A stretch of DNA of 64,000 nt from NCBI GenBank assembly GCA_002011475.1, contig MTNP01000008.1:74980-138979 (forward strand), given 5' to 3'. Shown in pieces: positions 31,218-59,772 of this stretch (its first letter is position 1; every line of letters starts with the position of its first letter). The DNA comes from Dehalococcoides sp. JdFR-54 (GTDB lineage Bacteria; Chloroflexota; Dehalococcoidia; JdFR-54). Position numbers and translations under genes: made by a program. A model generated the notes under the pieces. That model did not search any database. It worked only from the letters and a program-made list of their open reading frames with translations, and was not told where the DNA came from.

Positions 31218-31229
31218 GGCGGTTCCCTC

Positions 31230-32030: not shown

Positions 32031-32097
32031 AGGGCTTCCCCTTTCCGTGGCAAATCGGTGTAAAATCTATCACTGGGGTATGGGGATTGTCAAGGAC

Positions 32098-32418: not shown

Positions 32419-35450
<3,032 letters not shown>

Positions 35451-41626: not shown

Positions 41627-41640
41627 CCTGCCCACCAAAT

Positions 41641-41676
41641 TAAATGCCCTCCCGGGCACAGCCGAGAGGGCATTTA
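41641..41676 (-). terminator. leader attenuator/terminator hairpin upstream of the pan operon
   Basis: TAAATGCCCTC...GAGGGCATTTA inverted repeat followed by ATTT on the minus strand, about 15 nt before the first ATG. Confidence 0.65.
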
Positions 41677-41691
41677 GCATCCTTTCCCTTG

Positions 41692-41765
41692 TAGCCGTCT
41701 CGGTCGTGGCCGATCCAAGCGGTCAATTCTTAATAAAAGACGGTTAAAAGCTCACCGCTGGCCAG
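41692..41765 (-). ncRNA. pan RNA motif-like cis-regulatory leader
   Basis: CCGCTTGGATC-GGCCAC-GACCGAGACGG stem with bulged As upstream of pantothenate genes; promoter TTGACA-17-TATCCT at 41782-41810. Confidence 0.6.
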
Positions 41766-41828
41766 GGTCGATGGCAACTATAGGATAACACCCCTGGCTC
41801 ATATTGTCAAGAACTCGGGGTTGGCCCC

Positions 41829-41880
41829 TTGACAAGACCCGGTTTTATGCTTATAATTCCTAGTAAATCACTAGGAATTA
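41829..41880 (+). promoter_or_regulatory. consensus sigma70 promoter with overlapping palindromic Rrf2/IscR-type operator
   Basis: TTGACA(41829)-17-TATAAT(41852); perfect inverted repeat TAATTCCTAGT-AAATC-ACTAGGAATTA at 41854-41880. Confidence 0.85.
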
Positions 41881-41883
41881 GCC

Positions 41884-42333
41884 ATGATAGAATTCTCCAG
41901 CAAAGGGCGCTATGGCCTACGCTTGATGATCGAGCTGGCCCATGCCTATGGACGGGGGGTGTTGTCCCTGGCTGAGGTGGCTCACAAGCAGGGCCTGCCC
42001 TTGGGCTACCTGGAACAGTTGATGGCCCGTCTGCGGCAGGCCGGCCTGGTGGCGTCAGAACGAGGCATTAAAGGGGGTTATCGCCTCAGCGCCTCCCCGG
42101 AGTCCATAACCATAGGTGAGGTGTTGCGGGCGCTGGAGGGGCCTATCGCCCCCGCCCGCTGTGCCACCCCCCAGGGTTGCCGCCGAGAGCCCGTCTGCCC
42201 CTCCACCCTTGTGTGGCACAAGATAAGGGACACCGTGGCCCAGGTATTAAACTCCACAACCCTGGCTGATATATGCTGCTACCCGGTGACCGCGACCCCT
42301 GCTGCCGTGCTCCAGGGGGATGAGTGCCGATGA
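41884..42333 (+). CDS. Rrf2 family transcriptional regulator (IscR/CymR-like)
   Basis: [27 protein letters not shown]; three Cys in [13 protein letters not shown]. Confidence 0.92.
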
Positions 42334-43529
42334 AACGGGTGATCTATCTGGACCACGCCGCCACCACCCCCACCCACCCCCAGGTGCTGGAGGCGATGAT
42401 GCCCTACTTTTCGGAGAGGTTCGGCAATCCCTCCAGCATCTACACGCCGGCCCAGGAAGCCCGTAACGCTGTCGAGGATGCCCGCCGCACCGCCGCCGAA
42501 TTTCTAGGTGCCCAGCCCGAGGAGATCATCTTCACCGCCGGGGGCACGGAGGCGGATAATGCTGCCCTCAAGGGGGTGGCCTTCGCCCTGCGCCATAAGG
42601 GTAACCATATCATCACCTCGGCCATCGAGCACCACGCTGTCCTGGAGAGCTGTCATTTTCTGGAAAAGCTGGGCTTTGAGGTCACCTACTTGCCCGTGGA
42701 TGGCTATGGGATGGTCTCTGTGGCCGAGGCGGAGAAGGCTATCACCGACAGGACTATCCTGGTGAGCATCATGCTGGCCAACAACGAGGTGGGCACCATC
42801 CAGCCCATCGCCGAGCTGGGCCAGATGATCAAAGACAGGGCCCGCCACCTGGGGCGACCTATATATTTCCATACTGATGCCGTGCAGGGGGCCGGTGCCC
42901 TAGACCTGAATGTGGATAAGCTGGGGGTCGACCTCCTCAGCCTGGCCGCCCACAAGTTCTATGGCCCCAAGGGGGTGGGGCTCCTCTTCTTGAGAAAGGG
43001 CACACCCTTCGTCCCCCATATGAGTGGCGGTGGCCAGGAGAATAGCCGCCGGGCGAGCACCCATAATGTGCCCGGCATCGTGGGCATGGGGGCTGCCCTG
43101 AGACTGGCTGCCCAGAATCGCGCCCACTATAACCGGCACTGCGGCGAACTGCGCGACCGACTCATCCGGGGGATTCAGAGCCGTATCCAGGGGGCCCACC
43201 TCACTGGCCACCCCACCCAGCGCCTGTCCAACAATGCCAGCTTTTGCTTCGACTATGTGGAGGGCGAATCCGTATTGCTCAGTCTGGACCTGGCCGGGGT
43301 GTGCGCCTCCAGTGGCTCGGCGTGCACCTCGGGGTCGCTGGAGCCCTCCCACGTGCTCCTGGCCATGGGCATCCCCGCCGAGTTAGCCCATGGCAGCCTT
43401 CGCTTGACCCTGGGCCTGGGCAACACCGAGGAGGAGATAGAGTTTGTGCTCTCCATCCTCCCCGACATAATCCAGAGGCTTCGGGAGATATCCCCTCTGG
43501 TCACCCCCAAGGGGGAAAAATCTGCCTAG
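42330..43529 (+). CDS. iscS: cysteine desulfurase (IscS/NifS)
   Basis: [42 protein letters not shown]. Confidence 0.95.
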
Positions 43530-44428
43530 GGCTGGGCCAGGGCATAGATTCGGCCGGCCAGATCCAGCAATTCCTCCTTAGCATAAAGGGGCTCTAGCCA
43601 TCTATGGGGCACGCCCCCCAGCCCGAAATAGGCGCCAGCTAGGGCCCCGCATACTGCCCCGGTGGTATCGGTGTCGCCGCCCAGGTTCACGGCGCTGACC
43701 ACCGCCGCCTCGAAGCTGGGAGCCTGAAGGAAGCACCCCAGGGCAGCCTTCAGGGTATCCAGGACATAGGCCGAGGGCACCAGCCGTTCCCTGGCCCCCG
43801 CGGATGCCTCCAGCAGCACCCTGCTGACCTCCTCGTTGTCCATCAGTCCGGCCACCTCCTCGAGGAGGCCTTCTTTCCTGCCCTGCACCAGCCCGGCAAT
43901 AAGCAGATTCAGCGCCACCGCCGCCCAGCCTGCCCGGGGGTCCCAGTGAGTGATGAGGGCACTCTCCAGGCTGGCCTCGATGAGCCTATCCGGGCGGCGA
44001 TAGTAGAAGAGTCCAATAGGGGCACAGCGCATTATGCTGCCGTTGCCCGCCGAGAGCCCACCCAGCCTGTGATGGGCGAGGAGGCTTGCCTCCTGCCAGG
44101 AGGCCCCCCGCCCCAGCTCGGAGAGGGCGATCAAGGTAGTGCGGCCGATGCCCTTGGCCCCGGCTTGGAACCAGTCCAGAAACCTGGCAGCCACATCCTC
44201 GGGCTCGAATTCCCCCCGCTCCACCAGGCTGCGGGCCAGGCACAGGGTCATGGCAGTATCATCGGTATGTTCGCCCCGGCCCCAACCCCGCCCTGCCATC
44301 ATCTCGGTGACTTGGCCCCATCGGCTTCGGATGTGCTCAGGGCTCATCCCCTCCACCGGAGCCCCCAGGGCATCACCCACCGCCACCCCGACAAGACAGC
44401 CCTGAAAATGGGACAGCAACTCCTTCAT
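43526..44428 (-). CDS. ADP-ribosylglycohydrolase (DraG-like)
   Basis: [31 protein letters not shown]. Confidence 0.9.
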
Positions 44429-44827
44429 GGCCCAGGCATTGTATCATCCCAGCGGTTCTGCTCGCTTGGGTTGCCGCTAATCAAAGATAATTTTTCATCT
44501 AAAACTCCGCCTTCTGCTCCAGGGTAAGGCCTACTTCGAGACATCCCCTCCTCACTTAAATACGCAGCCCCCATTATAACTCTAGTATCCCTTATTTTTG
44601 CTAGAAAGACCAGACCTGCTCAACAACCTGCTTAGCTTCGGGATTCGAATTCTCTTGGGGCATTCGAGTAGCAGGAAATCCGACCGGTTGACAACCCCAT
44701 ATGGATGGGGGATAATGTCAACATTGGAATGTAGGACATTGTATTCCCTTCTTTGACCGCTTAGAGGTCCACAGTGTCACCACAACAGGCATCGCCTCCG
44801 AAGTCTTGAGCGGGGAAGCACGGGGTC

Positions 44828-45478
44828 ATGTTAGTTAGGGATATCATGACAAAGAATGTGATCGCGGTGCCGGCTAACACCATCCTCACCCATGCCAGGG
44901 ATATTATGAAGGCGCACAATATCCATCACCTGCCTGTAGTGGATGATAATAGGAAATTGCTGGGCATGGTTAACTGGGATAGGCTCGAGGAGTTCTTCTA
45001 CACCAGGTTCAACCCCTTTGCTTCCATCCGCTGGCAGTTGCTCTGGCTTGTAGTCAAGACCAGGCTGAAGGATATCATGAAAAGGGATGTGCCCACTGTG
45101 GGACCCGATGACACGGCCGAGCGAGCGCTTGCCCTGCTTGAGAGCCGACAACTAAGGGCCTTACCGGTGGTTGAACACGGCAAGCTGGTTGGTATCGTCA
45201 CTACCAGCGACTTGTTCAACAACATTGTCAGCCAGGTATTCACCCTGGATAAGTCAGGCCAGGGAATCGTTGTCTACGAAGCGGGCGATGGCAGGTCTGC
45301 TGAGAAGGTCATTTCCTGTATTAACGAGCTGGGCATCGAGATAAAGAGGCTGGCAACGATAGCCCCGCCCGGGGCAAAGAGGGGCGATATCTTGATCCAG
45401 CTCGGCGTTGAGGATGCTACTCAGGTGGTGGAAAGATTGCGAGCTCTCGGCTTTCGGGCAGGTTTGAGGCCTCGCTAG
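44828..45478 (+). CDS. CBS-pair + ACT-like domain protein (AcuB-like)
   Basis: VRDIMT, HHLPVVD, LPVVEHGKLVGIVT. Confidence 0.82.
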   Translation: MLVRDIMTKNVIAVPANTILTHARDIMKAHNIHHLPVVDDNRKLLGMVNWDRLEEFFYTRFNPFASIRWQLLWLVVKTRLKDIMKRDVPTVGPDDTAERALALLESRQLRALPVVEHGKLVGIVTTSDLFNNIVSQVFTLDKSGQGIVVYEAGDGRSAEKVISCINELGIEIKRLATIAPPGAKRGDILIQLGVEDATQVVERLRALGFRAGLRPR

Positions 45479-45524
45479 GCAGAGCGCTTTCGGCCACCTT
45501 GGCGGAAAACGATTATCTCCACCC

Positions 45525-45977
45525 CTATAGTGAATGGCCCCAAAGCAAGGTGGTCAGGGCACCAAGGGAAAGGAAGGGGCCGAACGGGATACCCCCTTTG
45601 CGCCCCCTTAGTCGCAGCCCAAGCAGGACGCTTGCTGCCAGTCCCGCGGCGATGAGCAGGGCAATGAAGACCAACGGGAAACCGGTCATCAATCCGATCA
45701 GTGTCGCCATCTTCACATCCCCCCAGCCCATTCCCCCTTTCGAGACAAGGGCTGGCAGGAGCAGCAACCCAAGTGCCATACAACCACCGATGATTGAATC
45801 TGTGATGCCCATCCCGGGCCAGCAAAGGGCGATACCGATGGCGAGGAGCATGGCGGGATACACCAACCTATTCGGTATAATCCCATATTTGAAGTCGATG
45901 ACCCCGAGAAGGACGAGCACAGAGCTGTAGAAGCCCAGGATACCCAGCTCAACAGCCATCTCACGCCGCCAGAGCAC
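45525..45977 (-). CDS. A24-family prepilin peptidase (short, peptidase domain only)
   Basis: Catalytic Asp motifs VIDFKYGIIPN and GMGWGDVKM, plus IPFGPFL; start codon uncertain. Confidence 0.8.
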   Translation of the reverse strand: MLWRREMAVELGILGFYSSVLVLLGVIDFKYGIIPNRLVYPAMLLAIGIALCWPGMGITDSIIGGCMALGLLLLPALVSKGGMGWGDVKMATLIGLMTGFPLVFIALLIAAGLAASVLLGLRLRGRKGGIPFGPFLSLGALTTLLWGHSL

Positions 45978-46024
45978 AAATCCCGAAAGGAGCCTCGCTC
46001 CCAGGGCACGTCATCGGTACCCCC

Positions 46025-46330
46025 TCAAGAGAGAAGTGCCTTTGCGTTGTTAAAAACGATATAGCCAAAGAAAACGATCAAGAGAGATTCGCAGGCTATG
46101 ACCGCCTTGAGCGCCCTTTCCCTTCCAGCAAGATGCCAGAAGCCGAGGCATATGCCCACCGTAACAGCCGCCTTTGCCCCATATCCTACCAGGGGGGCCT
46201 GGTTGAGAAGCACCTGGGCGAAGAGGTTTATTTCTATGGCCCCCTTGTGGAGGCAGGCGTAGGTCAATACCATATCACCCACGGAAAGCGTGGCCCAGAA
46301 AATTGCCAAGGCTTTTGCAAGACATCTCAT
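46025..46330 (-). CDS. small membrane protein (DUF5658-like)
   Basis: Three hydrophobic segments; D..LT....GAIEIN.F, K and NN pattern. Confidence 0.55.
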   Translation of the reverse strand: MRCLAKALAIFWATLSVGDMVLTYACLHKGAIEINLFAQVLLNQAPLVGYGAKAAVTVGICLGFWHLAGRERALKAVIACESLLIVFFGYIVFNNAKALLS

Positions 46331-46352
46331 CGTCTGTAAGGCCGCATCCCCT

Positions 46353-46835
46353 TTAGGATGCTGGCTGAGAGGGCTGTGACCTCCTCCTGAGCCAGCTTGC
46401 TATGCTCCTGCACTCCTTGAGCAGCTCACGAGCATCTATATCCTCCAAGCTCTCGGTGAGCGCCCGGAGGCTCAGGTCCTCCACCTCCTCGGTCCTGAAG
46501 AGGCTCAACAAGTTGTCCTCCTCTACCTCCTTCCCCCCTGACTCCTCCCCTCCCTCTCCATCGGCGTCCCCAGCCTGTCCAACCACCCCTTGGGCTGGCT
46601 GGTCTTCAATCCCCCCTTTTGCCACCAGGTCTTCTTGGGGTTCCACTCCCTCAATGGAGACTTCCCCAAGTTCCCACCCCACGTCGGCAGGGCGCGTGGG
46701 TGCTCCCTGAACATCTGCCTTCAAGTCTTCCCCAAGAGGTCTTTCCCCCCGTGACCTCTTCCTCAGGATAAAGACTGCGGCAGCAGCGATGGCAAAAACC
46801 GCCAGGGCAAAGAGGGCTGCGTCAAAGATACTCAT
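46353..46835 (-). CDS. membrane-anchored acidic hypothetical protein in the archaellum cluster
   Basis: N-terminal TM segment followed by RKRSR, acidic linker and helical tail DNLLSLF..LEDIDARELL; SD AAAGGA. Confidence 0.65.
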   Translation of the reverse strand: MSIFDAALFALAVFAIAAAAVFILRKRSRGERPLGEDLKADVQGAPTRPADVGWELGEVSIEGVEPQEDLVAKGGIEDQPAQGVVGQAGDADGEGGEESGGKEVEEDNLLSLFRTEEVEDLSLRALTESLEDIDARELLKECRSIASWLRRRSQPSQPAS

Positions 46836-46868
46836 GGTGTCTTTCCTTTCCCCGATCCATTTCGTGTC

Positions 46869-48368
46869 TCACATAGCTGGTACGGTGGTGAATATCATGG
46901 TTGCCAGCCGCGGGATAAAGATCAAGCATCCACCCGATATTGCCAGCATGATACTCAGGTAGTAAAAAAGCTTATAGGGGTGCCCCCCGTCGGCCGCCTT
47001 GGCGGCAAAGGCATTGGCCCCGGTAAGCACCACCAGCACCAGTATCACCAGCCAGTTGAGCAACTGCAAATCCTCCAAATGGAAGGTGAAGAGCCGGGTC
47101 GCCGGCAGCCCGGAGAACGCCCCCGGACTCCCTGTGGGCATCATCCCCTGCACCGTCCTCCCGAAGATGCCCATGACCTCCACGATAAACACCAGGAGCC
47201 CGCCAATGGCTCCGTGCATGGGGATGGAAAGCCAGCCGAAGGTGGAGGACACGAGCCTCCGTTTGGCCCGCAGCAGCGCGATCTTCATGGCGTAAAGGGA
47301 GGCACGATTGCCCACTTGCTCGGGCTCGCCCCCCAGGCTTATGCCGTCCCAGAAGACGCGCACCGTCCGGTCCACCTGCTCGCTCCCGGTTTCGGCCACG
47401 AACCGCTGCCAGCAGAGCTCGGGCTTGATGCCGGAGCTGAGTCTTACGCGGAGCCTGTTGACCTCGGGGGCCAGGGAGCCGGTGGCGCGCAGGTCCATTC
47501 TGCCCAAGGCCTCGGTTATCGTGGTCCCAATTGCCCCGGTGACGCCGCCCAGGGTGCGGAGGAAGGCAGCGATGTCGCCATCTCTTCTGTCTATCCTCCG
47601 GTCGTCCCTCAGGCTCACAAGCCCCACCGGGAGCAGCAAGATGCCTCCTAAGGCCAGTATCCACCCTATGTTTACCTTCAATAGGGCGAGGAGGGGGCAG
47701 CCGACCACGGCCAGGGGGAGGCAGATTTTGAATAGGTTGCGGGCCAGCCGCTGCTCCCTGGAGCGCTGGGGGAGGGAATGGGTCTTCTTCTCCTTGGGGG
47801 CGGTGCGGTAGATGAGCCAGGAGCCGGCAAGGGTTATCAGGATCATCAGCCCGGCCACCCCTAGGATGAAGGTGGTTCCCACCTGGTAGATCATCATCGA
47901 GATTACGGCGACGATGATGATGAGGGCCGCCGAGACGATGAGGGCCACGTAGCCGTCCGTCCACTTCTTCAGGGATTCTAATCTTCGCTCGTACTCATTG
48001 CCATAGGTCTCCCCCATGGCCTGCGCCTCCCGGGCCAAGAAGTCCCTCTCGGGCTCGCCCGAGGAAAGGGAGCCGGAGAGGCGCAGAAAGAGGTTTCTCA
48101 CCTCCTCTTCCTCGGCGGCCTCCCCCACCATGCGGCAGGCCTCGGCGTAATCGTAATTGAGCTTTTGGGACAGAAGGTGAATATCCCTCAAATACCGGGA
48201 GGAGACATAGGGGAGCCGGGAGGCATACTCGAAAACCTGGCTCCGCAACACGCCGGCTGTGGCCACAGCGGACATGTACGAGAGCTGCGAGAAAAGGTCG
48301 ATGCCCAGGAGCTCCCTGTCAAAAGAGCCCTTCCCGCTGCGCCTTTGCCAGAACCTGCAGAAGTTCAT
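46869..48368 (-). CDS. flaJ: archaellum membrane platform protein ArlJ (FlaJ)
   Basis: Two T2SS-F-like cytoplasmic domains with multiple TMs; LSYMSAVA, SSGEPERDFL, YERRLESLKKWTDGY, FLRTLG; downstream of flaI. Confidence 0.9.
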   Translation of the reverse strand: MNFCRFWQRRSGKGSFDRELLGIDLFSQLSYMSAVATAGVLRSQVFEYASRLPYVSSRYLRDIHLLSQKLNYDYAEACRMVGEAAEEEEVRNLFLRLSGSLSSGEPERDFLAREAQAMGETYGNEYERRLESLKKWTDGYVALIVSAALIIIVAVISMMIYQVGTTFILGVAGLMILITLAGSWLIYRTAPKEKKTHSLPQRSREQRLARNLFKICLPLAVVGCPLLALLKVNIGWILALGGILLLPVGLVSLRDDRRIDRRDGDIAAFLRTLGGVTGAIGTTITEALGRMDLRATGSLAPEVNRLRVRLSSGIKPELCWQRFVAETGSEQVDRTVRVFWDGISLGGEPEQVGNRASLYAMKIALLRAKRRLVSSTFGWLSIPMHGAIGGLLVFIVEVMGIFGRTVQGMMPTGSPGAFSGLPATRLFTFHLEDLQLLNWLVILVLVVLTGANAFAAKAADGGHPYKLFYYLSIMLAISGGCLIFIPRLATMIFTTVPAM

Positions 48369-50052
48369 AGAAACCAACGACCTTCTGTTCCTTGTGCAGT
48401 TTCTCCAGGATCTTGGCCCGCCTCTCCAGCTCGCCGTAGATCTGCCGCTTCTTGTGCTTGGGTATACCCCGCTTCAAGGCGATCTTCTGCTCCAGGAGGT
48501 AGCTGTTCATATTGCCCACGAACTCGAAGGTATCATCCACCGGGTTCCAGCGGAACATCTCGATAAAGGAGAAGGAGTCGGAGGGCGGGTCGTAGCCCAC
48601 GATCTCGTTGATGCTCAGGGCGCGCCGCCCGATCTTGCCATCGGGGAGCCGCACCGCACTCTGAATGATCACCACGTTGAGGTTATCTATATAGGTCTTG
48701 GGCACGTTGATGGGAGAGCCGGTGATGCGCTGGATGAGCTTCTCCACCGAGGCGGCGTGGAAGGTGGCCATCACCGCATGGCCGGTCTGCATCGCCTGGA
48801 AGGCGATGGCCCCCTCGATGCCCCTGATCTCCCCCACTATGATCTCATTGGGCCGCTGCCTCAAGGCCGCCTTGAGGAGGTCAAACATGGTCACCCCGGC
48901 GCCTTCCCCCCCGGTCTTTGCCTGGGTGACCACCTCCCTGATCCAGTTCCGGTGAGGCACCTGGAGCTCCGGGGTGTCCTCTATGGTCACGATCTTGGCG
49001 TTGGGGGGGATAAAGGTGGTAAGGGCATTTAAGAGCGTGGTCTTGCCCGATGCCGCCTCCCCCGAGACGAAGACGTTCATGCCCTCGCTGATAATCATGG
49101 AGAGGTAGGCAGCCATCATGTAATCCAGGCTGCCGAACTCGATGAGCTCCAGGATGCTCAGGGGGGTCTCGCTGAACTTGCGGATGGTGAAGTTGCTGCC
49201 CCGCTTGGAGACATCCTTGCCATAGACGATGTTTATCCGGGAGCCATCGGGAAGGACGGCGTCCACAATCGGGTCCCGGTAGGTAACCGGCTTCTTGATC
49301 CTCTCCGCCAGTCTCAACACGAATTCGTCCAGCTCCTCGAAGCTGGAGAAGGTTACAGCGGTCTTGAGGCCCCTGAAGATCTTGTGCTCCACGAAGATGC
49401 AGCCCAGCCCGCTACAGCTTATATCTTCGATGTAGCGGTCGCGTATCATCGGCTCCAGGATGCCCAGACCTATCTTGTCCCGGATGAGAAGGTATTTGAT
49501 GGCTTCCATCTCCTGGGGAGACACCCCGATCTTGGACCCGTTGCCCTTGTTGCCCAAGAGCCCGAAGAGCCCCCTCCCCGGGTTGCCATTCCCGTCGGTG
49601 GTGCAGATCCTGTCCACACAGCTCAGGAGCACCTGTTTTCTCTGCTCCTCCGTTTTGGCCTGGGCCAGTTCATCGGTGAACTCCAGGAGCCTCATCTCCA
49701 CCTCCGGCATCAGGCTGTCCAGGTTCCTGGTGAGGATCGGCTCTACCGAGATATAGCAGTCCCTTCCATCCTGGGGGTCGGGGTAGATGTGGGTGAAGAT
49801 GCCCTCGGCCACGGGGTAGATGAGGTTGGGGTGCTTCAGGTCTCGCAGCTTCGGAGTGAGCTTGGCGTAGTATTGGGGGATGCCCACTTGCTCGATGGGG
49901 ACCATATGCAGGTATTCCAGGAGGTGGATGTTCCCCGCCACCGCCTCCTGTATGGGCTTGGGGAGCATCCGGTAGAGGCCACACTGGAGGAGGCCGTCTC
50001 CGTGGCTGTCGGCCTTGCTCTCCCCGGTAAAAGGCAGCTTTACCTGCGGCAC
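48319..50052 (-). CDS. flaI: archaellum motor ATPase ArlI (FlaI)
   Basis: HLLEYL, NLIYPV..IFTHI, IEDISCSG, PDGSRINIVYG..VSKRGSNFTIRKF, GEAASGKTT, LRQRPNEIIVGEIRG, QTGH. Confidence 0.93.
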   Translation of the reverse strand: MPQVKLPFTGESKADSHGDGLLQCGLYRMLPKPIQEAVAGNIHLLEYLHMVPIEQVGIPQYYAKLTPKLRDLKHPNLIYPVAEGIFTHIYPDPQDGRDCYISVEPILTRNLDSLMPEVEMRLLEFTDELAQAKTEEQRKQVLLSCVDRICTTDGNGNPGRGLFGLLGNKGNGSKIGVSPQEMEAIKYLLIRDKIGLGILEPMIRDRYIEDISCSGLGCIFVEHKIFRGLKTAVTFSSFEELDEFVLRLAERIKKPVTYRDPIVDAVLPDGSRINIVYGKDVSKRGSNFTIRKFSETPLSILELIEFGSLDYMMAAYLSMIISEGMNVFVSGEAASGKTTLLNALTTFIPPNAKIVTIEDTPELQVPHRNWIREVVTQAKTGGEGAGVTMFDLLKAALRQRPNEIIVGEIRGIEGAIAFQAMQTGHAVMATFHAASVEKLIQRITGSPINVPKTYIDNLNVVIIQSAVRLPDGKIGRRALSINEIVGYDPPSDSFSFIEMFRWNPVDDTFEFVGNMNSYLLEQKIALKRGIPKHKKRQIYGELERRAKILEKLHKEQKVVGFYELLQVLAKAQREGLF

Positions 50053-50062
50053 TTGGGCCCCC

Positions 50063-50788
50063 TTATGCCTTGGCTTTAGATACTGGGATGATCCTCATCC
50101 CGATCCCGGGCTCGACGTCAAAGCTGATGATGTTCCCCGTGCTCTTATCCGCCCCCCTCACCTTGGCCACCTCCAGGACCTTGACCAGCTGATCCCCCAC
50201 CTCCTCTATGCGAAGCCTGAGGTGGGCATCGCACAAAGAACGAATGCGGATGAGGGTGCTCTCCTGGAAGGCATAGGAGTGGGCAGTGGCGATGATGGTC
50301 TTGCCCTGATTGCACAGGTTCTTGCACTCCTCGAAGAAGGAGATGGTCTCCTCCACCGAGGTATGGGTGACGAAGGTGGTGAGGGAATCTATGACCACAA
50401 GTTTGAAGGGCTCATGCCTCTGGATGCTGCGCAGGAGGATGCGGAACACCTCAGAGGCCGTCAGCCTCGCCCTCGTCGCCTGGATAGGATATATCCTGAG
50501 CCAATCCAAGAGGAGTTGGTCCGAGATGTCCAAGCTCAGGCTTTCCATCTGCTTGATGAGGCTCCTCACCGTATTCTCGGTGGTATAGAACAGGGTCCTG
50601 AATTTGTCATTCAGGGAACCCCACACCATCTGCTGCGAGAGGACCGACTTTCCGGCACCTGACTGGCCCTCGATGATGGTGAGAGACCCCAGCGGGATGC
50701 CACCCCCCATCTTCTTGTCGATCTCCGAGTTCCCTGTGGAGATGACCGCCCCCTCGCCATGGCTATCCTTTGCCAGCACATTCGCCAT
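50063..50788 (-). CDS. flaH: archaellum KaiC/RecA-like ATPase ArlH (FlaH)
   Basis: EIDKKMGGGIPLGSL, GQSGAGKS, YTTE, VVIDSL, FDVEPGIGMRIIP. Confidence 0.92.
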   Translation of the reverse strand: MANVLAKDSHGEGAVISTGNSEIDKKMGGGIPLGSLTIIEGQSGAGKSVLSQQMVWGSLNDKFRTLFYTTENTVRSLIKQMESLSLDISDQLLLDWLRIYPIQATRARLTASEVFRILLRSIQRHEPFKLVVIDSLTTFVTHTSVEETISFFEECKNLCNQGKTIIATAHSYAFQESTLIRIRSLCDAHLRLRIEEVGDQLVKVLEVAKVRGADKSTGNIISFDVEPGIGMRIIPVSKAKA

Positions 50789-50798
50789 TCAGGACCTC

Positions 50799-51332
50799 CT
50801 ATCCATTGAAAGCGACCGAAGTGACAACCCCATTGGGAGTGACTATGATCGCCCAGTTTGTGGAATCGACTTCCACCCCCGGGGTGAGCCCTATCTGGAT
50901 CACCACCTCCTCCTGGGGATTGAGGATGCCTGGCTCGAAAACCTCGGGGGTACCCCCTTGGGCATCCAGATATATCCCGCTTACCGCCCATTCGTTATTT
51001 TCGGGGTCGGGAGCGCCCTCGGTGTAGGGAAGCCATTTTATGTAGTAGTTGCCATCGGCCCCATAGTACTGGACGACCACATCCCAGCGCGGAAAGTCGC
51101 CCAGGGCCGCTTCCCCCTCATTCCTGAGGGTTATCTCCACGATTTGCCCCTCGGTGTGAACGGATGCGACCACGGGGGCGAGGTCCGTCCTCCTTATCTC
51201 CCCCACCCACTCCCCGGCCTGCTTCCATGACCCCGAAATGGCCTCCACCGCGGAGAAGGAGCCCTGGCTCATCGCCAGCGTCCCGAACAATATAATAGCG
51301 ATGGAGATCAAGGAGACGATGGCGCTTGACAA
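50799..51332 (-). CDS. flaF: archaellum stator protein ArlF (FlaF), copy 2
   Basis: N-terminal TM segment, ITLRNEG, WDVVVQY, EPGILNPQE, IVTPNGV; TTG start. Confidence 0.75.
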   Translation of the reverse strand: MSSAIVSLISIAIILFGTLAMSQGSFSAVEAISGSWKQAGEWVGEIRRTDLAPVVASVHTEGQIVEITLRNEGEAALGDFPRWDVVVQYYGADGNYYIKWLPYTEGAPDPENNEWAVSGIYLDAQGGTPEVFEPGILNPQEEVVIQIGLTPGVEVDSTNWAIIVTPNGVVTSVAFNG

Positions 51333-51355
51333 ATCGTTTACACCCCCTACCTATT

Positions 51356-51886
51356 CTATCTGGTGAAGATGACCGGGGCTGCCACCCCGTTCGAGGTAGC
51401 TACGAGCAACCGGTTTGTGGTGTTTGTCCAGACCTTGGGACTCAGCCTGAGCTGGATCACTATTTCTTCCCCCGGGTTGAGGATGCCCGGCTCAAAAACC
51501 TCCGGCTCGCCGGTTTGGGCATCCAGATATATCCCATGGACCGTCCATTCGTTATCCCCGGGAACACCCTCGCTGTAAGGAAGCCACTTTATGCAATAGA
51601 CCCTTTGGTTCCCCCCATAGTACTCGACGACGACGTCCCATCGCGGGAAATCGCCCAGGGCCATCCGGCCCGTGTTGGTGAGGATTATTTCCACGTTTAT
51701 TCCCTGGACCCCCACTTCTCGACCTGCAAAGCTGATCCTGGTCCTGGCCATCTCCCTCGTCTGCTCCGCCATTTGCCCCCACGACCCCGAAACGAGATCC
51801 ACCGAGGAGCAAGAGCTCGAGGCCACCGCGAGCACCCCGGTCACCATGACGGCGACGGAAATCAAAGAAACGATCGCGTGAGCCAA
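51356..51886 (-). CDS. flaF: archaellum stator protein ArlF (FlaF), copy 1
   Basis: Paralog of 50799-51332 (LGDFPRWDVVV.YYG, KWLPY, EVFEPGILNP); TTG start. Confidence 0.75.
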   Translation of the reverse strand: MAHAIVSLISVAVMVTGVLAVASSSCSSVDLVSGSWGQMAEQTREMARTRISFAGREVGVQGINVEIILTNTGRMALGDFPRWDVVVEYYGGNQRVYCIKWLPYSEGVPGDNEWTVHGIYLDAQTGEPEVFEPGILNPGEEIVIQLRLSPKVWTNTTNRLLVATSNGVAAPVIFTR

Positions 51887-51892
51887 TCTCCC

Positions 51893-52405
51893 CTACATGC
51901 TGAAGAAATGCTCATCCGAGACCCCGTTGGAGGCGATCACCTTCACGAAGTAGGTATCCGAGCCCAAGGCGGAGGAAAAGTGGATGGTGAGCTTGAGCGT
52001 TGCCGTGGGCTTCCACTCGGTATCGTTCTCCAGTTGCCAGCTCCAGCGGGGGAAACTGCCCCCGGCATCAACCTCGCAGGGGATGCGCACGAAATCCGCC
52101 TCCTTACCGAAAAAGACATCGCTCTCCTCGATGGCCACAAGGCGCGAGGCGCCCACGTTCTTGACCCAGAGGAATACGTCGAAATCCCCATCCCCATCGG
52201 TGTCCTGCCAGTTCCCATACCCGTCCAGTTCCCCGGTGGCATGGACGATTCGGATCTGGCTCTTGATGCGGTCGTCCACCTTCCCCGCCACGCTCACGAT
52301 AGCCCCGCTGGAGCGGCTGACCGCCGGATAGACGGCGTTGAAGACGAACATGGCGCATACCACCCCGGCTATAGCGAGCAAAACCGTGGTTATGGCCTTG
52401 TCGAT
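51893..52405 (-). CDS. flaG: archaellum stator protein ArlG (FlaG)
   Basis: (I)DKAITTVLLAIAGVV N-terminus, IKSQIRIVH, WVKNVG, DVFFG, W.P..TL, ASNGV; start inferred at ATC 52405 behind GGAGG. Confidence 0.78.
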   Translation of the reverse strand: MDKAITTVLLAIAGVVCAMFVFNAVYPAVSRSSGAIVSVAGKVDDRIKSQIRIVHATGELDGYGNWQDTDGDGDFDVFLWVKNVGASRLVAIEESDVFFGKEADFVRIPCEVDAGGSFPRWSWQLENDTEWKPTATLKLTIHFSSALGSDTYFVKVIASNGVSDEHFFSM

Positions 52406-53058
52406 GGCAGACCCTCCTTCTCATCAAACAGGATAGAAAGCAGCGCTGCCTCGGACCTGCTGCCCTTCCCCAGGAGCGCATCCAGCTGGACCAGCACCGC
52501 TATGCACTCCCTGGTGGTCACCTGCCCCTCGGGCTTTTCCTCCTCGGCCAGGTGAAGAAGCCTGAGCAATACCTCCTTTAGTTCAGGGGAGAGGCGCCCT
52601 GTGAGCTGGTAGACCTCCACAATGGCCTCCACCTTCCCCCGGCCTATCCTTTTCACGGCATTGCCCGCCCACTGCGTCAACCCCACGAGGTTGCCCAGTT
52701 CCATGGCGCCGTTGCGATGCTGCTCCACCCTGGGCCTGACGGGACGAAGGATGGGAGATGAGGGGACTTCCTCCACGTCAGTGCTGGCTTCCCCCTGCCC
52801 CGAGCCGCTAGCCCCTTGGCCCTCCTCCACTGCCCCCGCCTCCTCCGCCCTGGCAGCAGGCTCTTCCCCCGGGACTTTGTCCCGGGCCCTCACCCTCTCC
52901 TCGTCCAGAGGGAGTGGCTCAGGGGATTGCTCGAAGCCGCTGAAGGGGTTCTGACCATTCAGGATATACTCCCGGATGTCGACTAGGGTCTCCTTCACCT
53001 CGTTCTTCAGCAGCTTTATCTGGTCTTCCAGTTCCCTTATCTTCTGGTTCAGTTCCAT
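52390..53058 (-). CDS. ArlC/D/E-like archaellum accessory protein
   Basis: N-terminal coiled coil ending NPF (ArlC-like), acidic/Pro linker, C-terminal W....V..IG......VEVY..TG.LS domain (ArlD/E-like); lies between arlB and arlG; ATG 53058 with GGAGG. Confidence 0.6.
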   Translation of the reverse strand: MELNQKIRELEDQIKLLKNEVKETLVDIREYILNGQNPFSGFEQSPEPLPLDEERVRARDKVPGEEPAARAEEAGAVEEGQGASGSGQGEASTDVEEVPSSPILRPVRPRVEQHRNGAMELGNLVGLTQWAGNAVKRIGRGKVEAIVEVYQLTGRLSPELKEVLLRLLHLAEEEKPEGQVTTRECIAVLVQLDALLGKGSRSEAALLSILFDEKEGLPSTRP

Positions 53059-53081
53059 GGTCTGACCACCTCCCCTGCTCA

Positions 53082-53120
53082 TAGGTGCTCCCGGGGGGCG
53101 CGAAGCCCCCCGGAGCACCT
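53082..53120 (-). terminator. GC-rich stem-loop between the archaellin genes and the machinery genes
   Basis: AGGTGCTCCCGGGGGGC-GCGAA-GCCCCCCGGAGCACCT; no clear U tract. Confidence 0.6.
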
Positions 53121-53146
53121 CTGTCCTAAAACACCCCAGGCGCTCT

Positions 53147-53869
53147 CTAGAAGAGGTTCATCACCGCATCCAGGCGGGCCGGCGTCGTCCTCTGGATGGT
53201 GAGCACAGCCCCCTTGGGAGCCTTCACCTCCACGGTGAACTGCTCGTTCTTGCCGAGGAGTTTGGTGGCATCGTCCATAAAGGGGTCGGTGGCACCGGTG
53301 CCCAGCTTGTATAGGGTGCCGTCATAATTGACCAGCCACACCGTTATCTCGGCCTTCTCCCCGGCCTCCAGCAGGTAGTCACCGCTGGTCTTGCCCACAA
53401 ACTCCACCGTCCATGCCATGTCATTCAGAAATTGCACCTGGTCGCTGTAGGAGAGCACCGTGACATAGTCCAGCCCGCTGGCGGATATGCCTGTTCCAGC
53501 GCTATAGGTGTAAGGGGGTGTCAGGTCCACCGGTTCCCCGGCCACGGCGTTGGAGACCACGAAGGATATCTTGGTCACAGCCGTGCCCGCTGAGGCGACC
53601 ACAGTGGTGCCGCCGGAGTCATACACATCCACATTGTCATATGCCAGGGTGCTGCCCCGGGGCTCCATGGAGCTCCTGGCCTCCTGGAGGCCAGCATATA
53701 CCGCTTCCTTGCCCCGCTCCGCGGAGAAGATACCGGCAGACAGGACGGTGTAGGCGAACACCGAGGCCACCACCACGAAAGCGATGAGGATGATGGCCGT
53801 CTCCAGGCCGGTAATACCCCTCTCGTCCCTGCAAATCTTGCCCAGGCCTCTTTTCAATGTCTTGATCAT
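53147..53869 (-). CDS. flaB: archaellin ArlB2 (FlaB)
   Basis: Class III signal peptide ..RDERG|ITGLETAIILIAFVVVASVFAY; DYLLEAGEKAEI, FTVEVKAPKGAVLTIQRTTP. Confidence 0.93.
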   Translation of the reverse strand: MIKTLKRGLGKICRDERGITGLETAIILIAFVVVASVFAYTVLSAGIFSAERGKEAVYAGLQEARSSMEPRGSTLAYDNVDVYDSGGTTVVASAGTAVTKISFVVSNAVAGEPVDLTPPYTYSAGTGISASGLDYVTVLSYSDQVQFLNDMAWTVEFVGKTSGDYLLEAGEKAEITVWLVNYDGTLYKLGTGATDPFMDDATKLLGKNEQFTVEVKAPKGAVLTIQRTTPARLDAVMNLF

Positions 53870-53902
53870 TTTTCTCCTCCTTTCTTTGAAGTTTCGTCCC
53901 CA

Positions 53903-55024
53903 TCACTGAAGGTTCATGATGGTATCGATCTGGGGGGGCGTAGTCCTCTGTAGGGAGAGGCTGCTGCCATGGGGCGGCTTCACCTCCAGGGTAAACTGTT
54001 TATCGATCCTGAGCAGGGTGGTGAGGGCCTTCAAGGGCACGGTGATCTGCATCTTTTCCCCGGTCTCCAGCAGGTTGTCGCCATCCCCGGTGCCTATTTC
54101 CGCCTTTGACCAGGCTATATCGCTGATCTGCTGATCCTTGTCGCTATAGGAGATCACCGTGACATGGGTGCTGCCGGAGTCAGCTAGGCCGTCGCCATCG
54201 GCATCCGTAGGCGCTGTCAGGTCTATGGCCAGCCCGCCCACCGCATTGGCCACGGTGAAAATCAGCTCATGGACCTCGCCACCCGTGGGAGGGTCGCCCT
54301 CGATGCTATCCAGGTTGACCACTATGGTCGTGCTTGCTGGCAGACCGCCACCGGTGTTCAGGCCAATGGAGAGGATGGCACTATCCTGGGAGGGATTGGC
54401 CAAGGTGAGGCTGACCCTGGTCCAGGTACCGGCGGTCAGGGTGCCGATGTCGATGGTCTCCAGGGGGCTGGCACAGGCAGCGGTATCGTCAAGCACTAGC
54501 TGGAGCTGGTTGGCGACGGTCAGGTCGGTGTCCGACTTGACCCAGAGCTTGACCTCGGTCTGGCTGCTCAAATCCATAGCCGAGGCCAGGTCATGATAAG
54601 CGAGTAGGCCGCTACCTGGAGCCACGCCGGTGACAATGGTCAGCTCGACGCTGGCAGTGCCCTCCTTCCTATCATCGGTATCCCTCGCCGGAGTGACGCT
54701 GATTATATCGGTGGGGAGTGTGGCAGCCGCCTCCCAGGCCACCGGGTCGTCATCGGCATCGTCGATCATTTTGATCCCGGTAGCGATAACGCTCCCCTTT
54801 GGCTCCAGGGTGCCCCTGGCCTCCTTGAGGCCGGCATACACCGCCTCCTTGCCCCGCTCCGAGGAGAAGATACCAGCGGACAGGACGGTGTAAGCGAACA
54901 CCGAGGCCACCACCACGAAGGCGATGAGGATGATGGCCGTCTCCAGGCCGGTAATGCCCATCTCGTCCCTCACTATCCTGGCCGCCAGCCTCTTGATCTT
55001 CGATAACGCTCGCAGCTTACTCAT
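53903..55024 (-). CDS. flaB: archaellin ArlB1 (FlaB) with large inserted domain
   Basis: ..RDEMG|ITGLETAIILIAFVVVASVFAY; DNLLETGEK, FTLEVKPPHG..LQRTTP; ~150 bp nearly identical to arlB2 (54818-54970 vs 53678-53830). Confidence 0.93.
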   Translation of the reverse strand: MSKLRALSKIKRLAARIVRDEMGITGLETAIILIAFVVVASVFAYTVLSAGIFSSERGKEAVYAGLKEARGTLEPKGSVIATGIKMIDDADDDPVAWEAAATLPTDIISVTPARDTDDRKEGTASVELTIVTGVAPGSGLLAYHDLASAMDLSSQTEVKLWVKSDTDLTVANQLQLVLDDTAACASPLETIDIGTLTAGTWTRVSLTLANPSQDSAILSIGLNTGGGLPASTTIVVNLDSIEGDPPTGGEVHELIFTVANAVGGLAIDLTAPTDADGDGLADSGSTHVTVISYSDKDQQISDIAWSKAEIGTGDGDNLLETGEKMQITVPLKALTTLLRIDKQFTLEVKPPHGSSLSLQRTTPPQIDTIMNLQ

Positions 55025-55279
55025 CTGTCCTCCTTTCCAGGCACACTTCGCGCGCCTTCCTGACTATGACCTTCGTCGGGTGCTTTCAACCATCACATCC
55101 CTCACCTCCTCGGGCACTTAGCCACCTGGCACTCCCACCGCTCGCATTGTGAGATATATGCCCTTGCCAACTTTGGTTCCAACCCAATTGTAAGCTAGGG
55201 GCGTTTCTTGCTGTCTATGGTACCTTCGTAACAAGTGGGGCAGACCTTTGTCCCATGGGGGCGATTGTGCCAGGCATAA

Positions 55280-55312
55280 AGATAGGCGGGCATTTGTTAT
55301 GCCCGCCTATCT
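55280..55312. terminator. hairpin downstream of the ABC transporter operon
   Basis: AGATAGGCGGGCAT-TTGTT-ATGCCCGCCTATCT, followed by TTAT on the minus strand. Confidence 0.75.
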
Positions 55313-55334
55313 CGGGGGTCTTACTGGGACACCC

Positions 55335-56306
55335 TTAGCAGTAGAGATGGCATGCGGCGTAATGGCTCTCCATCACCTCTATCAGGGGGGGTTCTATAAC
55401 GTCACACTTACCCCGGATGAAGAGGGGACAGCGGGGATGCAGGCGGCAACCGGGGGGCACCCTGGTCGGGCTAGCTGGCTCTCCCGGGATAACCCGTCGT
55501 TCTCTGAACCTGTTAGCGGGGTCGGGGGAGGGGACAGCCTCGATCAAGGCCATGGTGTAAGGGTGACGGGGCTTCTCGATCAGCTCCTTGGTAGGGGCTG
55601 TCTCCACAATTCTCCCCAGATACATCACCGCTATCCTGTGGGAGAAATGCCGGGCGGTAGCGATGTCATGAGTGATATAGAGGAAGCTCATCCCGTGCCT
55701 GTCCTGGAGTTCCCTGAGCAGGTAAAGGATTTCGGCCCGGCTGGAGGCATCGATCATGGAAACAGGCTCATCGGCCACCACATAATCGGGGCGAAGGATC
55801 AAAGCCCGGGCGATGCCCACCCGCTGTCTTTGTCCCCCCGATAGCCTATCCGGATACTTCGGGGCAAACTCCTGGGGCGGGGTGAGCTTGACCTCTTCCA
55901 AGGCCTCATATATCAGCCGTCTCCTCTCGCGGCTGTTGCCTAGCCCGTGGATAAACAGGGGCTCTTCCAATATCTGGTAAATATTCATAAAGGGGTCGAT
56001 GCTGGAAAAGGGGTCTTGGAATATGCCCTGGGCCCTCTTCCGGAACCGTTTCAGTTCGGCATCATTGGCTGCGGTGATGTCTTCCCCGTCAAAGATAACG
56101 CGACCAGCGGAAGGCCTTATCAGCCTCAGGGATACCCTTCCTAAGGTGCTCTTTCCACTCCCCGACTCCCCCACCACAGCCAGGGTCTCCGCCCGCTTCA
56201 CCTCGAGGGAGACACCGTCCACAGCTTTTACCGCCAGCGAGCCAAAGAACCTGCTTCTGACCTGGAAATACATCTTCACCCCCTCCAGCATCAGCAGGTG
56301 GTTCAT
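55335..56306 (-). CDS. oppF: oligopeptide ABC transporter ATP-binding protein (OppF-like)
   Basis: GESGSGKS, LSGGQRQR, ADEPVSMID, CRLHPRCP. Confidence 0.92.
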   Translation of the reverse strand: MNHLLMLEGVKMYFQVRSRFFGSLAVKAVDGVSLEVKRAETLAVVGESGSGKSTLGRVSLRLIRPSAGRVIFDGEDITAANDAELKRFRKRAQGIFQDPFSSIDPFMNIYQILEEPLFIHGLGNSRERRRLIYEALEEVKLTPPQEFAPKYPDRLSGGQRQRVGIARALILRPDYVVADEPVSMIDASSRAEILYLLRELQDRHGMSFLYITHDIATARHFSHRIAVMYLGRIVETAPTKELIEKPRHPYTMALIEAVPSPDPANRFRERRVIPGEPASPTRVPPGCRLHPRCPLFIRGKCDVIEPPLIEVMESHYAACHLYC

Positions 56307-57265
56307 GGCCGCCCCCTCCAAAGCCAACAACGAACCTGGTGCCTCGGGTTCGGCCTGAAGGGAAGGGGGCGCTCCCGGCGGCAGCGCTCAAAGGCATGAG
56401 GACACCGGGGGTGGAAACGACACCCCTGGGGGAGGTGGGTCATATCGGGGGGTGCCCCTGGGATAAACTCGGGTATAGCCTCCGACTTCAGCCTGGGGAC
56501 GGTGGCCAGGAGTTTTTGAGTATAAGGGTGTCCCGGCTCGGTGAGCACCTCCTCAACGCCGCCCTGCTCTATAATCTCCCCGGCATACATGACAGCGATG
56601 GCGTCGCAGAGGTCGCTGGCCAGGGCGAGGTCATGGGTGATGAACAGGATGGATAACCCCAGCTCCCCCTTAAGCCTCTTCAATACATTCATTATCTGGG
56701 CCTGAATGATCACATCCAAGGCAGAGGTGGGCTCATCCAGGATGACCAGCTTGGGGCTGAGGATTAGCGCCATAGCTATCATTATCCTCTGCCTCATCCC
56801 CCCGCTGAGCTCGTGGGGGTAACGCTGGAAAACCTCTGGCGGCAAGAGCAATAGCTCCAGCTGGCGTTGGACGGCGGCATAGGCTTGCTCACGGCTCACC
56901 CCGGGCTGGAGGAGTAACGGCTCAGCCACCTGATGCCCCACCCTCATCACCGGGTTGAGGGAATCCATGGCTCCCTGGAAAACCATGGCAATCCTTTGCC
57001 ACCTGATTCGCTTTCTGAACTCCTCATCGCTGAGCTTCGAGCAATCGACCCCTTCAAACTCTATAATCCCATCATAGAGGGCGATATTCCGGGGCAGGGT
57101 GCGCATCAGGGCGAGGGCAAGGCTGCTCTTGCCCGCCCCTGACTCCCCCACCACCCCCAGCGCTTCCCCCCCTTCCATAATCAAAGATACCTCGTCCACC
57201 GCGGGCAGTACTCCGCCCACGGTGGCATAGTAAAGGCGCAGGTCGCTGACCCGGAGCAGAGCCAT
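56303..57265 (-). CDS. oppD: oligopeptide ABC transporter ATP-binding protein (OppD-like)
   Basis: GESGAGKS, YPHELSGGMRQR, LDEPTSALD, CRFHPRCP. Confidence 0.92.
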   Translation of the reverse strand: MALLRVSDLRLYYATVGGVLPAVDEVSLIMEGGEALGVVGESGAGKSSLALALMRTLPRNIALYDGIIEFEGVDCSKLSDEEFRKRIRWQRIAMVFQGAMDSLNPVMRVGHQVAEPLLLQPGVSREQAYAAVQRQLELLLLPPEVFQRYPHELSGGMRQRIMIAMALILSPKLVILDEPTSALDVIIQAQIMNVLKRLKGELGLSILFITHDLALASDLCDAIAVMYAGEIIEQGGVEEVLTEPGHPYTQKLLATVPRLKSEAIPEFIPGAPPDMTHLPQGCRFHPRCPHAFERCRRERPLPFRPNPRHQVRCWLWRGRP

Positions 57266-57269
57266 TATT

Positions 57270-58694: not shown

Positions 58695-58697
58695 TTC

Positions 58698-59747: not shown

Positions 59748-59772
59748 CCCTTGCCTACAATCGGGGCGGCGT

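Follow-up and report, generated by a model that had tools for sequence, protein, structure and literature searches.

Genes of the archaellum cluster

The window analysed here is a stretch of 64,000 nucleotides (positions 74,980 to 138,979, forward strand) of contig MTNP01000008.1 from the Dehalococcoides sp. JdFR-54 assembly GCA_002011475.1. Between positions 45525 and 55024 it carries a cluster of 12 co-directional open reading frames (ORFs) on the minus strand, with at most 47 bp between neighbouring genes. Along the direction of transcription, the cluster encodes a long archaellin (arlB-long), a second archaellin (arlB), an ArlCDE-like protein, ArlG, two copies of ArlF, ArlH, ArlI, ArlJ, an acidic protein, a DUF5658 protein and an A24 peptidase. 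An initial annotation of the letters had described this region as a complete archaellum operon in a bacterial chromosome. The gene list and order it gave agree exactly with the coordinates, and its impression that the main ORFs are intact holds for all 12 frames, which are open. The family assignments presented below come from Pfam and NCBIfam searches together with profile matches to PDB entries.

At the centre of the cluster is arlI (48319..50052), coding for a motor and assembly ATPase of 577 aa that scores 684.7 bits against the NCBIfam archaellum motor ATPase model (cut-off 550). The next-best NCBIfam families are BasE (184.7 bits), TadA (162.8 bits) and PilB (65 bits), so that neither TadA/CpaF nor PilB is the closest family of this protein, and among PDB entries FlaI (4ii7, E-value 5e-137) is matched far better than CpaF (E 5.5e-47). 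It is the sole T2SSE ATPase of the host genome, in which no second one was found. The KaiC-like ATP-binding protein ArlH (50063..50788, 241 aa) exceeds the cut-offs of the NCBIfam models FlaH (PRK06067, 295.4 bits vs 194) and ArlH (222.2 bits vs 215), and its best PDB match is FlaH (4yds, E 3e-35). The polytopic membrane platform is encoded by arlJ (46869..48377), whose start is uncertain; translation from the first TTG gives 502 aa and overlaps the end of arlI by 59 nt. The best families for the ArlJ product are three ArlJ/FlaJ models, the top one being covered at profile positions 33-522 of 525 (NCBIfam ArlJ/FlaJ, E 4.5e-136). Pfam T2SSF is matched at 35.8 bits against a cut-off of 25.2, and no TadB/C family match was seen at E <= 0.01.

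The phylogenetic position of ArlI was analysed in a tree of 91 sequences, comprising the window protein, the ArlI of 82 comparison loci (80 named loci, 13 of them archaeal, and two class relatives) and, as the outgroup, eight Tad-like ATPases from class relatives. The 83 archaellum sequences are split from the Tad-like ATPases by a branch of length 5 with an SH-aLRT support of 100, and the window ArlI is placed among Dehalococcoidia. Judged by these sequence comparisons, the window ArlI is an archaellum ATPase and not a Tad-like one. The two class relatives and the majority of the 80 named loci likewise show the gene order arlB-(AF_1053-like)-arlG-arlF-arlH-arlI-arlJ. The 13 archaeal sequences (Methanophagales, Methanosarcinales, Archaeoglobaceae and others) form a single clade (SH-aLRT 99) near the bacterial ones, which is consistent with the sister relation to Methanotecta arl2 clusters reported in PMC12488501. 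With the Tad-like outgroup the archaeal sequences nest among the bacterial ones; we draw no direction of transfer from this topology, because a very long branch leads to the outgroup and only those archaeal sequences that most resemble the Chloroflexota query are included. Separately, four genomes of a 401-genome sample of the class (G102, G154, G317 and G381) contain two tandem arlI-like matches side by side, each above the curated cut-off, which suggests duplicated or fused ArlI genes in some lineages.

Upstream of arlH lie the genes for the stator. The single-sequence matches of these proteins are weak and under the cut-offs: ArlG (51893..52381, 162 aa) reaches the NCBIfam ArlG model with an E-value of 2.9e-7, and the two ArlF copies match FlaF_Ig-like and ArlF models, the first (51356..51886, 176 aa) scoring 27.3 bits against Pfam FlaF_Ig-like (E 5.3e-6, cut-off 28.4). 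The assignments are nevertheless firm because the family profiles match solved FlaG and FlaF structures. For a profile of 25 ArlG sequences drawn from the comparison loci, the closest PDB entry is the soluble domain of FlaG (5tug/6pbk, E 5.6e-14), and for one of 23 ArlF sequences it is FlaF (4p94, E 2.9e-13), followed by FlaG. The second arlF copy (50799..51332, 177 aa) is a tandem paralogue of the first. By sequence the pair is a lineage-specific tandem duplication, since the copies are 55% identical to each other while neither exceeds 47% full-length identity to arlF in any of 82 other loci, and two arlF-like regions occur in only one of those loci (L096).

Both archaellins match Pfam Arch_flagellin as well as the NCBIfam archaellin/pilin N-terminal domain. 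The 240-aa product of arlB (53147..53869) scores 74.2 bits (cut-off 29.5, E 2e-20) over profile positions 1-162 of 162, and its best PDB match is chain 9i5h_C (E 4.2e-35), identical in sequence to 9sie and 9sii, the latter two entries being the archaellum of Litorilinea aerophila (PMC12488501). The product of arlB-long (53903..55024, 373 aa) scores 69.1 bits against the same cut-off (E 7.2e-19) with the match split in two stretches; it combines a class III signal-peptide-like N-terminus with an inserted middle region of ~160 aa, and full-length relatives are present in the loci L019, L057 and L096 and in the archaeal locus L026. The N-terminal coding parts of the two genes form a direct repeat of 193 nt with 88% identity (53651-53843 and 54791-54983), a likely site for recombination between the archaellin copies.

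The gene between arlB and arlG (52390..53118) was tentatively assigned by position and family profile to an ArlCDE-like family, of which AF_1053 of Archaeoglobus fulgidus is a member. Its ORF has 242 codons; the true start is likely the ATG at 53058, the 21st codon, giving the 222-aa form that is also the form on record (P0391). In the protein, a coiled coil at the N-terminus and a variable acidic linker precede a conserved domain of ~100 aa at the C-terminus, which has an invariant tryptophan, and homologues occupy the same position in most bacterial and archaeal loci. The family profile has no NCBIfam or PDB matches; it does match Archaeoglobus proteins, including AF_1053 (E 3.8e-37), and three of the 43 matches listed are named FlaD/E or FlaC by a source. 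We therefore call the product ArlCDE-like only provisionally, as a candidate cytoplasmic scaffold.

The last gene of the cluster (45525..45977) encodes a single-domain A24 prepilin/prearchaellin peptidase of 150 aa (Pfam Peptidase_A24, 63.2 bits vs 26.5, E 3.5e-17), which is the only Peptidase_A24 match in the host genome. It has an aspartate in the first conserved block and a G-x-G-D block, which we take to provide the catalytic residues; no PDB relative at E <= 1 and no NCBIfam match were found for it. A co-directional A24 gene follows arlJ at 0.7-5.2 kb in 22 of the 80 comparison loci having an arlJ match. Almost all of these belong to the Anaerolineae-type ArlI clade, and only one of the 32 loci titled Dehalococcoidia is among them; in one complete Dehalococcoidia chromosome with an archaellum cluster, the sole A24 gene lies more than 1.2 Mb away.

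Next to the peptidase gene is that of a small DUF5658 membrane protein (46025..46330, 101 aa; Pfam PF18902, 36.2 bits vs 25.2, E 1e-8), of which the host genome has a single copy. Among the control genomes, DUF5658 was detected in archaea only (Haloferax and Sulfolobus, and in the first run also Methanosarcina). Within the class sample, 35 of 79 ArlI-bearing and 27 of 322 ArlI-lacking genomes have it, and 25 genomes carry it on the same contig as arlI, with three preferred distances between the two. Pfam also places a DUF5658 gene 1.3 kb after arlJ in the archaeal locus L075; a jackhmmer search of the comparison loci returned only the four copies already known. No mention of DUF5658 was found in the literature searched. 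These patterns hint at DUF5658 as a second travelling archaellum accessory, in looser association with the locus than the acidic protein described below.

A conserved acidic protein encoded after arlJ

The gene directly downstream of arlJ (46353..46835) encodes an acidic protein of 160 aa without a Pfam or NCBIfam family, which was recognised by a motif hidden Markov model (HMM) and by position. A membrane helix at its N-terminus and an acidic low-complexity linker precede a conserved C-terminal motif of ~50 aa, which recurs in the product of the gene that follows arlJ in other Chloroflexota loci. Of the 23 post-ArlJ members scanned, none was assigned a family by Pfam, two isolated weak matches aside. 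We ran an iterated HMM of the motif on all 40,936 six-frame ORFs of the 82 loci plus the whole host genome. The ORF directly after arlJ was matched in 50 of the 61 bacterial loci having at least 700 bp after arlJ (E <= 0.01), and three further matches lie in shifted contexts, e.g., with the gene after arlI in L057. In the host genome, the search returned the window's own protein and nothing else below an E-value of 0.079.

The same association is seen across the class sample, in which the motif occurs in 75 genomes, ArlI in 79 and both in 67. The motif is thereby present in 67 of 79 ArlI-bearing genomes vs 8 of 322 ArlI-lacking ones, ~4 of the latter being expected by chance; as the sampled genomes are kin, these linkage counts overstate independence. 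In 62 genomes the motif follows arlI on the same strand, at a distance of 227-3049 bp (median 1837 bp). Two of the eight genomes with the motif and no ArlI match, both from one genus, contain stop-interrupted remnants of it (G061:C34:14604-14732 and G173:C24:75755-75889), and these may be traces of a lost archaellum locus.

Post-ArlJ proteins come in a short soluble form with a basic N-terminus, a single-pass form that includes the window protein, and a two-helix Anaerolineae-type form. In one family of the class, represented by L099 (G109:C3, 8081-9943) and L100 (G290:C16, 248-2314), the motif precedes a membrane helix, after which come LysM and Peptidase_M23; LysM and Peptidase_M23 were confirmed by Pfam for L099, and L100 was read by eye. 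An apparent fusion to ArlJ in L038 was rejected, because its 648-codon ORF is merely open in another frame across arlJ, with a protein of 126 aa encoded next. The large ORFs of family f58 are real proteins with the motif, a membrane helix, LysM and M23 that follow arlJ and are not fused to it.

In the 13 archaeal loci the bacterial motif HMM alone gave no match. Each of them nevertheless encodes, after arlJ, an acidic protein whose C-terminal motif is similar, as the first ORF in 10 and as the second in three, and in a profile-profile comparison the bacterial and archaeal motifs align in register over 56 columns (probability 84%, E 7.3e-6). On the basis of sequence, the tight linkage of this family to arlI and arlJ probably extends to Methanotecta-type archaeal loci. 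A search of 1.84 billion representative proteins with the motif yielded 787 cluster representatives at E <= 0.001, and in all 150 among the matches listed the motif ends within ~20 residues of the C-terminus. Four archaeal loci of Methanophagales type (L028, L037, L075 and L078) also share a gene for a small, conserved membrane protein (~70 aa) shortly downstream of the acidic gene.

Structure-based searches were uninformative for the acidic protein. A complex prediction combining ArlI, ArlH and the ArlCDE-like C-terminal domain with the motif gave a score of 0.00 against a mark of 0.32 and provides no evidence either way, and a protein atlas search with the 160-aa protein had a best feature score of 0.83 with all TM values below 0.3. 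No description of the gene was found in the main texts of the Chloroflexota archaellum papers and a 2026 envelope paper (supplements being outside this scope) or by phrase search; arnR1 of Sulfolobus, which the phrase search returned, is a different protein.

We tentatively propose, as a possibility somewhat short of an even chance, that the post-ArlJ protein is a conserved cytoplasm-facing accessory of the arl2 motor in both domains of life, that its motif docks on the motor, and that in Chloroflexota the N-terminus has been re-engineered into a membrane anchor and, in one family, extended with LysM and M23. If true, the protein would help to fit an archaeal motor into a bacterial wall, and the family would be a concrete candidate for how such a motor is held in, or passed through, that wall. 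This family may matter more than the locus itself.

Host genome, contiguity and alternative readings

The host genome is a metagenome-assembled draft of 1.69 Mb in 67 contigs, with 93.85% completeness and 2.95% contamination. The window is part of a contig of 153,631 bp that carries both ArlI and a bacterial-type release factor 1 (RF1, encoded by prfA, with PCRF and RF-1 domains) followed by PrmC (prmC). Bacterial 23S, 5S and 16S rRNA and a tRNA-Ile are present in the same window, as the initial annotation had noted together with prfA and prmC. The taxonomy of the host rests on the names carried by close relatives of its RF1 and ArlI. Among the 120 RF1 matches listed, five bear organism names and are 72-74% identical (four read 'Dehalococcoidia bacterium', the fifth 'Chloroflexi bacterium'), one is labelled only 'subsurface metagenome' and the remainder are nameless. 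Going by these names, the host is a Chloroflexota bacterium of Dehalococcoidia type. The cluster is flanked on the peptidase side by genes for a CBS protein, an ADP-ribosylglycohydrolase and a class V aminotransferase, and on the arlB side by Opp-type ABC transporter genes.

The GC content of the cluster (0.598) is practically that of the genome (0.597), which bears out an earlier estimate by eye, and its tetranucleotide distance lies at the 60th percentile of 266 genome windows of equal size. By these values the cluster, of archaeal ancestry, is compositionally ameliorated. Of the ancient, ameliorated transfer that had been proposed for the locus, our own data carry the amelioration; direction and age rest on PMC12488501, as the ArlI tree presented here cannot be rooted for this purpose. 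The sigma70 promoters that had also been reported were not confirmed in a consensus scan of positions 45000-55600, which returned three sites compared to 2.8 +/- 1.8 in shuffled sequence; promoter and terminator signals of the cluster region are at chance level.

The reading to which we assign a high probability is that the locus is an intact arl2-type archaellum operon in a bacterial chromosome, inherited by this lineage from an old archaea-to-Chloroflexota transfer. Several observations weigh against it. ArlJ scores 454 bits, under the curated cut-off of 570 of its NCBIfam model; the 242-aa ArlCDE-like protein has no usable Pfam (E <= 10) or NCBIfam match of its own, and among 24 relatives just two match Pfam Arch_fla_DE, at a best E-value of 3e-4. 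The scan mentioned above showed nothing promoter-like upstream of arlB on the minus strand, and the host genome returned no CheW domain, no MCPsignal match and no CheF-type coupling, an absence that is unproven in a genome 93.85% complete. Furthermore, PMC12488501 notes that SAR202 strains in culture displayed no filaments on their surface in spite of carrying the genes, so archaellum genes do not guarantee the organelle.

Three alternatives were considered in the light of these points. ArlI, ArlJ and the peptidase share the Pfam superfamilies T2SSE, T2SSF and A24 with pilus systems, and two Anaerolineales genomes have been reported to hold a pilus-type locus that came from archaea by a second, separate transfer (PMC12488501); the locus in the window could in principle be another type IV filament system, such as a Tad-like pilus, an archaeal adhesion or UV pilus or a bindosome, mislabelled as an archaellum. 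We hold this to be highly improbable. ArlI lies above the archaellum-specific equivalog cut-off whereas BasE and TadA reach only 185 and 163 bits, and the Tad-like ATPases of class relatives form a distant outgroup; a grouping of ArlI with Tad or type IV pilus systems, which would have spoken for such a filament, is contradicted by the bit scores and the fully supported split alike. ArlH, ArlF and ArlG, which are regarded as archaellum components, are all present, and the archaellins match Arch_flagellin, with the L. aerophila filament as the best solved relative of the arlB product. Equally, the draft status and contamination of the genome, an assembly in which unitigs break within the archaellin genes, the compositionally odd neighbouring region at 14-28 kb of the window, and the occurrence of mis-binning for arlI elsewhere (a 3-kb arlI contig, L073, binned in an Acidobacteriota genome, nests among Dehalococcoidia) might speak for an artefact in which DNA of an archaeon was attached to a bacterial contig or placed in the same bin. 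Public contigs aligned to positions 41000-60000 address this directly. In run X1, the possible source of the assembly, a contig of 11,034 bp spans 42777-53810 at a depth of 26.6 (flanks 26.8 and 27.5), and another extends from 54926 to beyond 60000 in the same depth range of 26.6-27.5. The only breaks in this run (53786-53810 and 54921-54955) fall inside the 193-nt arlB/arlB-long repeat, which explains them. Run X2, which belongs to a separate study, has a contig at 45131-46270 that connects the CBS gene, the peptidase gene and DUF5658 with zero differences. The junction with the flanking genes is therefore bridged in two studies on the peptidase side and in the possible source run only on the arlB side, and the chimeric junction once suggested as a way to overturn the finding was not encountered. 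An identical ArlI is also present on a contig of 233,099 bp (P0003), and ArlI occurs in 79 of 401 class genomes. Given the bacterial genes on both sides, the bridging contigs, the breaks explained by the repeat, the second contig with identical ArlI and the genome-typical composition, a chimera is very unlikely, and an artefact of assembly or binning is the most improbable of the readings weighed here.

A third alternative accepts the locus as intact and holds that it does not serve swimming, being silent, in early decay or the source of a non-rotating adhesive filament. The missing CheW and MCPsignal matches, the lack of a promoter-like site before arlB, the small genome and the SAR202 isolates without filaments would all fit, as would loss of the locus within the class, to which the stop-interrupted motif remnants of G061 and G173, with no ArlI, point. 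Set against this, each of the 12 ORFs is open and has full profile length, a reduced genome retains ~9.5 kb for the cluster, and the arlF duplicate has stayed intact at 55% identity. In addition, arlF, arlG and arlH go with rotation rather than with adhesion pili, in agreement with PMC12488501, and chemosensory systems are found in only 82 of 226 archaellum-bearing Chloroflexota genomes (Mahanta et al., ISME Commun 2026, PMC13747009). Overall we consider a locus that is not used for swimming unlikely, and retain the reading of an intact, inherited archaellum operon.

Two further features of the window deserve mention. The rRNA genes (28410-35450, minus strand) are arranged unusually, with the 16S gene downstream of 23S and 5S and protein genes in between: 23S (35450-32417) and 5S (32255-32139) are followed by an etfB-like electron-transfer-flavoprotein gene (32030-31230), etfA (31217-30219; Pfam ETF and ETF_alpha), 16S (30105-28602) and then tRNA-Ile(GAT), all on the minus strand. 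The region 14000-28000, with a GC content of 0.504 (2nd percentile) and a tetranucleotide distance at the 98th percentile of the 266 genome windows, contains genes for a family III CoA-transferase and an Opp-type ABC transporter and may be an acquired island. With regard to binning, the contig L073 mentioned above (3,022 bp, binned as Terracidiphilus sp., Acidobacteriota) has its ArlI inside the Dehalococcoidia clade, and by this placement it most likely comes from a Chloroflexota bacterium and was binned wrongly, and is not evidence of an Acidobacteriota archaellum.

Proposed working and comparison with known systems

By analogy with the archaeal and L. aerophila systems, the in-locus A24 peptidase would remove the short class III leader from the two archaellins, and ATP-consuming ArlI hexamers on the ArlJ membrane platform would build a filament from the archaellins before setting it in rotation. 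ArlH would modulate ArlI, ArlG and the two ArlF paralogues would constitute the external stator, and the AF_1053-type ArlCDE-like protein would act as a cytoplasmic scaffold. The post-ArlJ acidic protein would most likely be a further cytoplasm-facing motor accessory, tied to the membrane in some Chloroflexota and to peptidoglycan in one family. Expression, assembly, rotation and the roles of the accessory genes are proposed on the same analogy, as is swimming motility of the host. Flagellin_N had no matches in the 93.85%-complete host genome (the control was positive in 4 of 14 known genomes), and COX1 was not found in it at 94% completeness, the one observation that bears on the anaerobic life suggested for the host. 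With CheW, MCP and flagellin genes not found, swimming would be unsteered or otherwise controlled, and directed motility is doubtful.

The Tad (Flp) pilus resembles the window locus in belonging to the type IV filament superfamily, in its archaeal ancestry in bacteria, in its short single-domain A24 peptidase and in a CpaF/TadA ATPase related to ArlI. It differs in having no equivalents of ArlH, ArlF, ArlG or the archaellins, and the window ArlI scores 684.7 bits with the archaellum model as opposed to 162.8 with TadA. The locus also resembles the arl2 clusters of Methanotecta-type Euryarchaeota (Archaeoglobus, Methanophagales/ANME-1 and Methanosarcinales), where ArlI is 55-60% identical and the gene order is shared, including the AF_1053-type gene between arlB and arlG, the acidic protein with a similar C-terminal motif after arlJ in each of the 13 archaeal loci, and in L075 the DUF5658 gene 1.3 kb after arlJ. 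The differences concern the domain and cell envelope of the host, the composition of the cluster, which is that of its bacterial genome, and a conserved position of the post-ArlJ motif that is phenylalanine in bacteria and leucine in archaea.

Within the Chloroflexota, archaellum machinery has been reported in 243 of 3,780 genomes, and Litorilinea aerophila was shown to express and assemble an archaellum, the filament of which was solved, and to swim (Sivabalasarma et al., Nat Microbiol 2025, PMC12488501). ArlI exceeds the curated cut-off in three of the 41 nearest relatives of the host, each of them related only at the level 'same class', and in 76 of the 401 genomes of the class sample (79 at E <= 1e-100). 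The earlier description of such clusters as known from a few Chloroflexota and rare gives the precedent correctly and understates how common they are; an archaellum in Chloroflexota is neither new nor very rare within this class. The SAR202 bacterium 'Candidatus Lucifugimonas marina' (PMC10444878) is a marine member of the Dehalococcoidia class that also has an archaellum locus, in a genome of 3.1 Mb with a complete F1 chemosensory system (PMC13747009), in contrast to the window genome, where CheW and MCP were not found. An archaeal-like PibD has been stated for SAR202 members.

With L. aerophila and the other published Chloroflexota systems, the window locus has in common the arlB copies, a candidate arlCDE homologue, arlG placed before arlF, arlH, arlI and arlJ in one locus, the lack of flagellar genes alongside in the genome and the archaeal ancestry. 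The arlG-arlF order and an occasional arlF duplication in some members are described in PMC12488501, and the L. aerophila archaellin is, as noted, the closest solved relative of the window ArlB. The post-arlJ gene and DUF5658 are not discussed in the main text of that paper (supplements outside scope), and no pilN/pilO-LysM genes were seen next to the window cluster. The signal peptidase is stated there to lie outside the archaellum locus, whereas here the only A24 gene of the genome is the last gene of the locus, and the host is a class-level relative with a genome of 1.69 Mb rather than a member of the filamentous Caldilineales. As no chemosensory genes were found, the cluster can serve as a compact reference for a minimal gene set. 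That a bacterium can carry an archaeal machine for motility has been established since 2025, and the window locus adds a member to that group rather than a discovery; it is useful as a member from a very small Dehalococcoidia-type genome in which the whole machine, including the only prepilin peptidase, is held in one operon-like block of 9.5 kb.

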